This document shows positions 2,598 through 6,077 of a stretch of 9,435 bases of DNA, piece by piece. The translations under genes were made by a program, and so were the position numbers. The notes under the pieces were generated by a model. That model was not told the DNA's origin. It ran no database searches and saw only the letters and a list, made by a program, of their open reading frames with translations. Source of the stretch: a virus (Duplodnaviria; Heunggongvirae; Uroviricota; Caudoviricetes); IMG/VR virus record IMGVR_UViG_2671180577_000006, one strand, 5' to 3'. Positions within the stretch are counted from its first letter, which is position 1. Every line of letters begins with the position of its first letter.

Positions 2598-5500
2598 ATG
2601 GGTAAAGGCAGCAGTAAGGGGCATACCCCGCGCGAAGCGAAGGACAACCTGAAATCATCCCAGATGCTGAGCGTGATAGACGCCATCAGTGAAGGGCCGA
2701 TTGAAGGTCCGGTGGACGGATTAAAAAGTGTGCTGCTGAACAGTACGCCGGTGCTGGACAGTGAGGGGAATACCAATATCTCCGGTGTCACGGTGGTGTT
2801 CCGGGCAGGTGAGCAGGAGCAGACACCGCCGGAGGGATTTGAATCCTCCGGCTCCGAGACGGTGCTGGGTACGGAAGTGAAGTACGACACGCCGATTACC
2901 CGGACCATCACGTCTGCAAACATCGACCGTCTGCGCTTTACCTTCGGTGTGCAGGCACTGGTGGAAACCACCTCAAAGGGGGACAGGAATCCGTCGGAAG
3001 TCCGCCTGCTGGTTCAGATCCAGCGTAACGGTGGCTGGGTGACGGAAAAAGACATCACCATTAAGGGCAAAACCACCTCGCAGTATCTGGCCTCGGTGGT
3101 GGTGGATAACCTGCCGCCGCGCCCGTTTAATATCCGGATGCGCAGGATGACGCCGGACAGCACCACAGACCAGCTGCAGAACAAAACGCTCTGGTCGTCA
3201 TACACCGAAATCATCGATGTGAAACAGTGCTACCCGAACACGGCACTGGTCGGCGTGCAGGTGGACTCGGAACAGTTCGGCAGCCAGCAGGTGAGCCGTA
3301 ATTATCATCTTCGCGGGCGCATTCTGCAGGTGCCGTCGAACTATAACCCGCAGACGCGGCAATACAGCGGTATCTGGGACGGAACGTTTAAGCCAGCATA
3401 CAGCAACAACATGGCCTGGTGTCTGTGGGATATGCTGACCCATCCGCGCTACGGCATGGGGAAGCGTCTCGGTGCGGCGGATGTGGACAAATGGGCGCTG
3501 TATGTCATCGGCCAGAATTGCGACCAGTCGGTGCCGGATGGCTTTGGTGGCACGGAGCCGCGCATCACCTGTAATGCCTGGCTGACCACACAGCGCAAGG
3601 CGTGGGATGTTCTCAGTGATTTCTGCTCGGCGATGCGCTGTATGCCGGTATGGAACGGGCAGACGCTGACGTTCGTGCAGGACCGACCGTCGGATAAGGT
3701 GTGGACCTATAACCGCAGTAATGTGGTGATGCCGGATGATGGCGCGCCGTTCCGCTACAGCTTCAGTGCCCTGAAGGACCGTCATAATGCCGTTGAGGTG
3801 AACTGGATTGACCCGGATAACGGCTGGGAGACGGCGACAGAGCTTGTTGAAGATACGCAGGCCATTGCCCGTTACGGTCGTAACGTCACGAAGATGGATG
3901 CCTTTGGCTGTACCAGCCGGGGGCAGGCGCACCGCGCCGGGCTGTGGCTGATTAAAACGGAACTGCTGGAAACGCAGACCGTGGACTTCAGCGTGGGTGC
4001 GGAAGGGCTTCGCCATGTACCGGGGGATGTCATTGAAATCTGCGATGATGACTATGCGGGTATCAGCACCGGCGGGCGCGTGCTGGCGGTGAACAGCCAG
4101 ACCCGGACGCTGACGCTCGACCGTGAAATCACGCTGCCATCCTCCGGTACCACGCTGATAAGCCTGGTTGACGGTCAGGGTAATCCGGTCAGCGTGGAGG
4201 TCCAGTCCGTCACCGACGGCGTGAAGGTGAAAGTGAGCCGTGTTCCTGACGGCGTTGCAGAATACAGCGTGTGGGGGCTGAAGCTGCCGACGCTGCGCCA
4301 GCGCCTGTTCCGCTGCGTGAGTATCCGTGAGAACGATGACGGCACGTATGCCATCACCGCCGTGCAGCATGTACCGGAGAAAGAAGCCATCGTGGATAAC
4401 GGGGCGCACTTTGACGGCGACCAGAGCGGCACGGTGAATGGTGTCACGCCGCCTGCGGTGCAGCACCTGACTGCCGAAGTCACCTCAGACAGCGGGGAGT
4501 ATCAGGTGCTGGCGCGCTGGGATACGCCGAAGGTGGTGAAGGGGGTGAGCTTTATGCTTCGCCTGACCGTGGCAGCGGATGACGGCAGTGAGCGGCTGGT
4601 CAGCACGGCCAGGACGACGGAAACCACATACCGCTTCAGGCAACTGGCGCTGGGGCGTTACACGCTGACGGTCCGGGCGGTAAATGCGTGGGGACAGCAG
4701 GGCGATCCGGCATCGGTATCGTTCCGGATTGCCGCACCGGCAGCGCCGTCGCGGATTGAGCTGACGCCGGGCTATTTTCAGATAACTGCCACGCCGCATC
4801 TTGCGGTTTATGATCCGACGGTACAGTTTGAGTTCTGGTTCTCGGAAAAGCGGATTACCGATATCAGGCAGGTTGAGACCACAGCCCGCTATCTTGGTAC
4901 GGCGCTGTACTGGATAGCTGCCAGTATCAATATCAAACCGGGCCATGATTATTACTTTTATATCCGCAGTGTGAACACCGTTGGCAAATCGGCATTCGTG
5001 GAGGCTGTTGGTCGGGCGAGCGATGATGCGGAAGGTTACCTGGATTTTTTCAAAGGAGAAATCGGGAAAACACATCTGGCCCAGGAGCTGTGGACGCAGA
5101 TTGATAACGGTCAGCTTGCGCCTGACCTGGCTGAAATCAGGACGTCCATTACGGATGTCAGCAATGAAATCACGCAGACCGTCAATAAGAAACTGGAAGA
5201 CCAGAGTGCGGCAATTCAGCAGATACAGAAGGTTCAGGTTGATACAAATAATAACCTGAACAGCATGTGGGCTGTGAAGCTGCAGCAGATGCAGGACGGA
5301 CGCCTTTATATCGCGGGTATTGGTGCCGGTATTGAGAACACCTCTGACGGTATGCAGAGTCAGGTGCTTCTGGCTGCTGACCGGATTGCGATGATTAATC
5401 CTGCGAATGGCAACACAAAGCCGATGTTTGTTGGTCAGGGCGATCAGATATTCATGAACGACGTGTTCCTGAAACGCCTGACAGCTCCGACCATTACCAG

Positions 5501-6077
5501 CGGCGGTAATCCTCCGGCATTTTCCCTGACACCGGACGGGCGGCTGACGGCGAAAAATGCCGATATCAGCGGTAACGTGAATGCGAACTCCGGGACGCTC
5601 AACAACGTCACGATTAACGAGAACTGTCGGGTTCTGGGAAAATTGTCCGCCAACCAGATTGAAGGCGATCTCGTTAAAACAGTGGGCAAAGCTTTCCCCC
5701 GGGACTCCCGTGCACCGGAGCGGTGGCCATCAGGGACCATTACCGTCAGGGTTTATGACGATCAGCCGTTTGACCGGCAGATTGTTATTCCGGCGGTGGC
5801 ATTCAGCGGCGCTAAACATGAGAAAGAGCATACTGATATTTACTCCTCATGCCGTCTGATAGTGCGGAAAAACGGTGCTGAAATTTATAACCGTACCGCG
5901 CTGGATAATACGCTGATTTACAGTGGTGTTATTGATATGCCTGCCGGTCACGGTCACATGACGCTGGAGTTTTCGGTGTCAGCATGGCTGGTGAATAACT
6001 GGTATCCCACAGCAAGTATCAGCGATTTGCTGGTTGTGGTGATGAAGAAAGCCACCGCAGGCATCAGTATCAGCTGA
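2598..6077 (+). CDS. J: Tail tip central fiber / host specificity protein J
   Basis: 1159-aa ORF with Shine-Dalgarno GGAG 8 nt upstream of the ATG. N-terminal and central regions recognisable as lambda gpJ ([25 protein letters not shown]...). Central region has fibronectin-III-like strands (e.g. [22 protein letters not shown]). The C-terminal ~250 aa is the expected receptor-binding region. I recall lambda J as 1132 aa, so this copy would be about 27 aa longer. Confidence 0.95.

Follow-up and report, generated by a model that had tools for sequence, protein, structure and literature searches.

Which outer-membrane receptor does a lambda-like phage use when its central tail fibre resembles that of lambda along most of its length and departs from it at the tip? 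The question is raised by the J gene, encoding the tip attachment (host specificity) protein, of a tailed phage (Caudoviricetes) represented by a 9,435-bp stretch of DNA (IMG/VR record IMGVR_UViG_2671180577_000006), hereafter the window. A preliminary description of the window had proposed that the C-terminus of J is a host-range determinant that may differ from that of lambda. J is a natural chimera of three known modules, in which a lambda-type hub and FNIII body (amino acids, aa, 1 to ~820) is joined to an extended alpha-helical shaft and beta-prism of the phage-21/VT1-Sakai type (aa ~821-1010) and these in turn to an immunoglobulin (Ig)-like receptor-binding domain (RBD, aa 1011-1159) of the 1A2/VT1-Sakai type, and we consider it very likely that its receptor is OmpC of the O157/EDL933-like and not of the K-12 type, LamB not being used.

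Domain architecture of J

The translated open reading frame (ORF) of J has 1159 aa and lambda J (P03749) has 1132, exactly the lengths from which the preliminary description had argued; the C-terminal sequence quoted there is likewise present in the protein. Matches to PF24801, PF13550, PF24421, PF24489, PF09327 and PF12421 all lie above the curated cut-offs and in the expected order. The domain series is complete, from FNIII-A and the hub (Phage-tail_3) through two Ig/FNIII domains to the prism of the tail-tip fibre and the RBD at the C-terminus. PF09327 matches aa 872-1000, and PF12421 (Ig_GpJ_C) aa 1029-1159 (all 135 positions of the model; 128.5 bits, with a cut-off of 26.2). Lambda J (PDB 8iyk, 8xck and, with LamB, 8xcj), whose RBD binds LamB, belongs to the same family and shares both the domain order and the M-L-K-I-J-lom-stf synteny, and 8iyk_J aligns over aa 1-835 of the window J with 2176.9 bits (E = 0).

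The likeness to lambda J changes abruptly along the protein. It amounts to ~97% identity over aa 1-820 (37-40 identical residues in every 40-residue block of the global alignment up to aa 800, and 100% identity over aa 800-820), drops to 29.5% over aa 821-925, returns to 87% over aa 926-1010 and ends at 41% over the RBD (lambda J aa ~985-1132). The view that the first ~900 residues are lambda-like is thus correct up to ~aa 820 and fails for aa 821-925, and the last ~150 residues are, as had been suspected, unlike the LamB-binding C-terminus of lambda J: the two are homologous, but high identity across the full lambda domain is not found and the lambda RBD allele is not matched.

The extra length over lambda J is due to a net 28-residue insertion at aa ~836-866 (nucleotides, nt, ~5103-5195), offset in part by a one-residue deletion in the RBD. 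The C-terminal part of lambda J is ordered as FNIII-1, FNIII-2, alpha-helical shaft (AHS, residues 809-861), beta-prism (CSF) and Ig-like RBD (PMC11101478), and from the position of the insertion in this order it follows that the shaft is lengthened (that of lambda being 28 residues shorter) and that the last ~150 residues are the RBD. The segment that is so unlike lambda, aa 821-925, is 96% identical to the J of VT1-Sakai, 98% to that of phage 1H12 and nearly identical to that of phage 21 (OL657228, 571-4053, 1160 aa), which shares the extended shaft and the upper prism. The conserved lower prism behind it (aa 926-1010) is 98% identical to VT1-Sakai and 89% to A8.

The receptor-binding domain allele

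The RBD is identical (100%) to that of PhiR5_1 (PV340545), an isolated phage for which E. coli C served as the propagation host, and 99.3% identical to that of VT1-Sakai J; over aa 961-1159 the substitution S1157T is the sole difference between the window J and VT1-Sakai J. Essentially the same sequence is found in 1A2, which, like A8, was made by joining a natural prophage J C-terminus to residue 964 of lambda J (Brödel et al., Nature 2024, PMC11338833). What follows lambda aa 964 in 1A2, i.e., lower prism and RBD, is essentially the sequence of the window J and also that of the J C-terminus of O157 prophages, e.g., VT1-Sakai/Sp15 (AP000400) and the PPompW prophages. The gpJ 1A2 sequence is printed as DNA in the supplement and was taken from machine-read PDF text with small indels, to which window aa 961-1159 were compared by a frameshift-tolerant protein-to-DNA alignment: 183 of 199 positions are identical, 10 are unreadable and 6 are mismatches, mostly beside reading errors. 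At the DNA level the printed graft is 68.5% identical to the window overall, with many synonymous differences. Both 1A2 and VT1-Sakai end in ...AGITIS (T1157), whereas the window J ends in ...AGISIS, with an S1157 that is also present in A8, phage 21 and PhiR5_1. This near-identity after lambda aa 964 places the window J in the 1A2/VT1-Sakai RBD allele.

Other members of the family are considerably more distant, with RBD identities of 64% (1H12 and phage 21, whose RBDs are the same in the alignment), 61% (BP-4795) and 59% (A8). The gpJ of A8 has an RBD of the same Ig-like family and is the best-scoring solved structure for the J C-terminus: the C-terminal 345 aa score 406.6 bits against "A8 gpJ 713" in its closed state (PDB 9wca), more than the 338 bits against lambda J (8xcj). 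PDB 9wcb is the complex between A8 gpJ and the OmpC of E. coli EDL933. Two indels separate the A8 and window RBDs (a 10-letter stretch against PRTN--SY, and KHE------KEH against KHENFNSNNQQSYW), and these are the only differences clearly in loops; the substitutions relative to A8, 1H12, BP-4795, lambda and h434 showed no significant enrichment in predicted loops (Fisher p = 0.13-0.62). Residue ranges of the lambda RBD loops L1-L4 were not found in the text of PMC11101478. The preliminary description had further suggested comparison with the J proteins of phi80, HK97, N15 and phage 21, of which only the last aligns over the RBD. BLASTP hits of HK97 J (27% over window aa ~856-1025), phi80 J (37% over aa ~843-959) and N15 J (20%, E = 0.014) were confined to the shaft and prism, with none reaching the window RBD.

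Receptor evidence from 1A2 and related phages

The 1A2 and A8 grafts were screened on a lamB deletion host for the use of another receptor (PMC11338833). In an MG1655 lamB ompC double deletion, delivery by 1A2 amounts to ~2% with K-12 OmpC and variants G1/G2 and to ~98% with EDL933 OmpC and variants G3 and G5 (PMC11338833), i.e., 1A2 accepts only the EDL933 type, whereas A8 accepts both K-12 and EDL933 OmpC (PMC11338833). On wild-type MG1655 (LamB+, K-12 OmpC) at a multiplicity of infection of 50, 1A2 reaches 5.2%, compared with 97.7% for wild-type lambda (PMC11338833), and K-12 LamB is therefore not used by 1A2. A graft nearly identical to the tip of the window J thus redirects lambda particles from LamB to OmpC (PMC11338833), in agreement with the proposal that this C-terminus is a non-lambda host-range determinant, and we infer by analogy that the native, unchimerised J of the prophage would behave like the 1A2-bearing particles.

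The obvious alternative is that the native J uses LamB, alone or together with OmpC, as lambda and phage 21 do, its RBD being just another LamB-binding allele. Phage 21 lends this some substance, as its shaft is of the same extended kind, its RBD falls into the same broad clade and its native receptor is LamB: its ancestor used only LamB on K-12, and OmpC use was gained by one J mutation (PMC11336670), in line with receptor use in this domain being able to shift by single mutations. However, the graft that is ~99% identical to the window RBD performs very poorly on LamB+ MG1655, the ompC allele governs its delivery where lamB is deleted, and the window RBD is far from those of both lambda and phage 21. 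We therefore regard the use of LamB as very improbable.

OmpC, for its part, is recognised by J-type central fibres of several kinds. The J of phage 434 is a classical OmpC binder (PMC11101478), and phi330, a natural long-tailed phage of enterohaemorrhagic E. coli, no longer forms plaques once ompC is deleted, and its plaquing is restored by complementation (PMC12502783). Since the RBDs of h434 J (lambda h434, OM418627) and phi330 J (PV189401) are respectively 41% and ~62% identical to that of the window, OmpC binding is spread over quite different RBD alleles. Conversely, phage 21 (LamB) and A8 (OmpC) are ~80% identical in their RBDs, and so a receptor cannot be transferred from one J to another at 60-80% RBD identity. 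The receptor predicted here consequently rests on the ~99% match to 1A2. Every isolated PhiR phage of this RBD class was propagated on E. coli C or ECOR13 and none on K-12, which fits with K-12 OmpC being a poor receptor. A literature search for outer-membrane receptor data on the PhiR temperate-phage panel yielded a sole paper (SNIPE), which reports ManYZ dependence instead.

One may also ask whether the native J, by virtue of its 21-type shaft or of S1157, uses a different or additional receptor, e.g., OmpF, another porin or FhuA. 1A2 has the short shaft of lambda up to aa 964 and the window J the extended one, and related J proteins readily evolve the use of OmpF or OmpC. Against this, the chimera experiments place specificity behind lambda aa 964 (PMC11338833), S1157 is no peculiarity of the window J, being shared with A8, phage 21 and PhiR5_1, and the FhuA-type J proteins of N15 and phi80 have only shaft and prism in common with the window J and nothing of the RBD. 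On balance, we hold a receptor of this kind to be quite unlikely.

Several points count against assigning EDL933-type OmpC as the receptor. The functional evidence comes from a chimera (fusion at lambda aa 964, lambda particles with a P2 side fibre) and not from the native J with its 21-type shaft, to which it may apply by analogy. The unreadable and mismatched positions, 16 of the 199, cannot be verified from the machine-read 1A2 text, and residue 1157 of the window is S, not T. Receptor use is labile, as phage 21 and A8 illustrate, and a single substitution could matter. Moreover, the source sheet of Extended Data Fig. 2c (OmpC-EDL933 host) in PMC11338833 gives the same values for 1A2 and A8 as panel b (OmpC-MG1655 host), probably through a copy error in the source-data file; this panel is unusable as evidence, and the 1A2 receptor claim is drawn from Fig. 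1b together with Extended Data Figs 1 and 8a. Finally, a single-sequence AlphaFold2 model of aa 985-1159 is all-beta and of low confidence (pLDDT 55), and although Foldseek placed 9wcb, 9wca, 8xck and 8xcj at the top (E 5e-11 to 2e-8), TM-scores were only 0.42-0.45. So poor a model may be taken neither to add to nor to detract from the conclusion reached by sequence comparison; the Ig-like fold of the RBD is implied by its identity to the solved structures of A8 and lambda.

Mosaic junction and GC content

To place the junction, window DNA was compared with lambda and VT1-Sakai by sliding identity and informative sites. From nt 2598 to ~5050 the window is 93-97% identical to lambda and 65-82% to VT1-Sakai, and from nt ~5060 to ~6750 it is mostly 93-100% identical to VT1-Sakai and only 23-70% to lambda outside a conserved island (nt 5420-5600, 88-89% identical to lambda). 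The change itself is steep: identity to lambda, 96% just before, is down to 23-33% at nt 5060-5200, where that to VT1-Sakai has climbed to 97-100%. The last lambda-type informative site lies at nt 4979 and an unbroken VT1-Sakai-type run begins at nt 5057, so that the mosaic segment surmised earlier is indeed present, with the switch between these two sites. The differing region had been given as nt 5300-6077, which begins too far downstream, as the DNA diverges from ~nt 5058 and continues to do so past the end of J to ~nt 6750.

Lambda-type and VT1-type informative sites are interleaved at nt 4663-4979, in the FNIII-2 region, which suggests older, short gene-conversion tracts. Beyond J, the VT1-Sakai-like segment runs through lom (nt 6117-6709, 73-100% identical to VT1-Sakai and 33-80% to lambda), and because both lie in one such block, the J tip and lom were probably acquired together. 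A dip in identity to VT1-Sakai at nt 6117-6316 (73-88%) hints at a further small patch.

A lower GC content from ~nt 5040 had been taken as consistent with a mosaic segment. The drop is real (0.64 at nt 4501-4800, 0.49-0.50 at nt 4801-5400), but its onset lies at ~nt 4700-4850 and it is equally present in the J genes of lambda and VT1-Sakai. It is thus a conserved feature of J genes, and we rejected it as a marker of the junction.

Reassortment and prevalence of the modules

The shaft and RBD alleles reassort independently. Chlobot and 1H12/phage 21 combine this shaft with other RBDs, and PhiR5_1 has this RBD on another allele of shaft and upper prism (56% identity over aa 821-925) and on an N-terminal body that is not lambda-like, with DNA 84% identical to the window over nt 5009-6077. 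For comparison, the DNA of VT1-Sakai is 96.4% identical to the window over nt 5000-6077. In PhiR5_1 the switch falls in the NADISG...NVTINENC block, which acts as a natural recombination hinge and module junction; the engineered fusion point (lambda aa 964, Eligo; PMC11338833 Methods) is located in the same conserved stretch.

The RBD DNA (nt 5589-6077) has matches in 3,642 of 5,426 complete E. coli genomes, 2,307 records being at least 95% identical. At the protein level, the RBD is found at an identity of at least 95% in 53 phage records, mostly O157 Shiga toxin-converting and PPompW prophages, and the extended shaft at 95-99% in 59 phage records. The RBD allele has already been characterised and ranks among the most frequent J tips of E. 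coli prophages, and J is an OmpC-type host-range module of a known sort within an ordinary lambdoid mosaic, nothing new in kind. Its only distinctive point is the precise three-part combination, which stands alone in its 90%-identity protein cluster: the exact J protein has NCBI entries (CTT75242.1, CTT77745.1, EFN9076007.1 and MDO2826397.1) named 'Host specificity protein J [Escherichia coli]' and occurs on 6 contigs. The longest of these measures 9,435 bp, which makes the window an entire draft-assembly contig. No match of at least 99% over most of the window was found among complete E. coli genomes or phage records, the best whole-window matches being ~94% identical over ~90% of its length, and this is consistent with a particular mosaic and with nothing unusual.

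Proposed course of adsorption

By analogy with lambda J-LamB and A8 J-OmpC, the bottom loops of the RBD trimer would enter the porin trimer at its extracellular face. By homology, the opening of the RBD would then be passed on through the prism, the alpha-helical shaft would flip and partly refold, and thereafter the FNIII strings would dissociate and the hub open for the exit of DNA. We expect the window J to go through the same steps with EDL933-type OmpC, with a shaft longer than that of lambda.

Gene content of the window

ORFs and Pfam matches identify the window as a lambda-like tail-tip module (Table 1), whose gene order H-M-L-K-I-J-lom-stf is collinear with lambda imm21, with the VT1-Sakai annotation and with many E. 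coli prophages.

Table 1 Features of the 9,435-bp window, with the segments of J
Feature	Position (nt)	Strand	Remarks
H (tape-measure gene), 3' end	to 219		
M	216-545		intact full-length ORF, full-length Pfam match
L	545-1243		intact full-length ORF, full-length Pfam match
K	1249-1992		247 aa; JAB and NlpC/P60 domains; full-length Pfam match
I	1890-2537		intact full-length ORF, full-length Pfam match
J, tip attachment / host specificity protein	2598-6077	+	intact, 1159 aa plus stop
J: lambda-type part (hub domains, FNIII-1, most of FNIII-2; aa 1-794)	2598-4979	+	
J: crossover interval, lambda-type to VT1-Sakai/phage-21-type (aa ~794-820; end of FNIII-2, start of shaft)	4979-5057	+	
J: divergent alpha-helical shaft and upper beta-prism (aa 821-925)	5058-5372	+	
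J: conserved lower beta-prism (aa 926-1010), including the NADISG...NVTINENC block	5373-5627	+	
J: receptor-binding domain (aa 1011-1159)	5628-6074	+	1A2/VT1-Sakai allele
lom (Ail/Lom outer-membrane protein)	6145-6744	+	199 aa; PF06316 full-length, 417 bits
stf (side tail fibre), partial	6896-9435	+	at least 846 aa; frame open to the 3' end of the window

These genes also bear on whether J works at all. The prophage is seen only as a 9.4-kb draft contig, and homologous prophage J genes are often broken: the J of VT1-Sakai (3606-7078 of the compared stretch) is split by a mutation and annotated as two truncated coding sequences and the gpJ of E. coli 504239 (4064-7542 of the compared stretch) is marked as frameshifted. 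J could accordingly belong to a defective prophage remnant and have no current function in adsorption. In contrast to these homologues, however, the window J is intact, as are M, L, K, I and lom, each of them a complete ORF whose Pfam match is full-length, and the reading frame of stf stays open up to the window end; a defective remnant thus seems to us highly unlikely.

Gene I overlaps K by 103 nt, and in some lambda records K has a later start (199 aa), an annotation difference only. The stf product carries the prophage tail fibre N-terminal domain PF08400 (238 bits), and its homologue in E. coli 504239 is an annotated gene of 3174 nt. An Ala/Ser-rich low-complexity stretch of stf is responsible for a strong AT skew (0.25-0.49) and also for long ORFs that are spurious, on the plus strand (e.g., 7290-8300) as well as on the minus strand (e.g., 7393-8142). 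Past nt 8700 the GC content goes down to 0.43-0.47, and database matches are broken near nt 8360 and 8780; the GC fall and the breaks together suggest further mosaic joints in the tip of this fibre, which is host-range context and outside the finding on J.

Implications

The central fibre of this E. coli prophage should be annotated as an OmpC-type (1A2/VT1-Sakai-like) J and not as a LamB-type J, a label that predicts no infection of K-12 through LamB and a preference for hosts with O157-like OmpC. Beyond correct annotation this matters little for the prophage itself. For the family as a whole, calling receptors by homology within PF12421 is unsafe below near-identity. A bolder proposition, which we think improbable when all its parts are taken together, is that the native combination or S1157 might widen or shift receptor use (e.g., towards K-12-type OmpC or towards the use of both LamB and OmpC) and, more broadly, that this common prophage J tip is selective for particular OmpC alleles. 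Were it true, prophage J would be a plausible driver of OmpC polymorphism and of the lineage-restricted spread of prophages.

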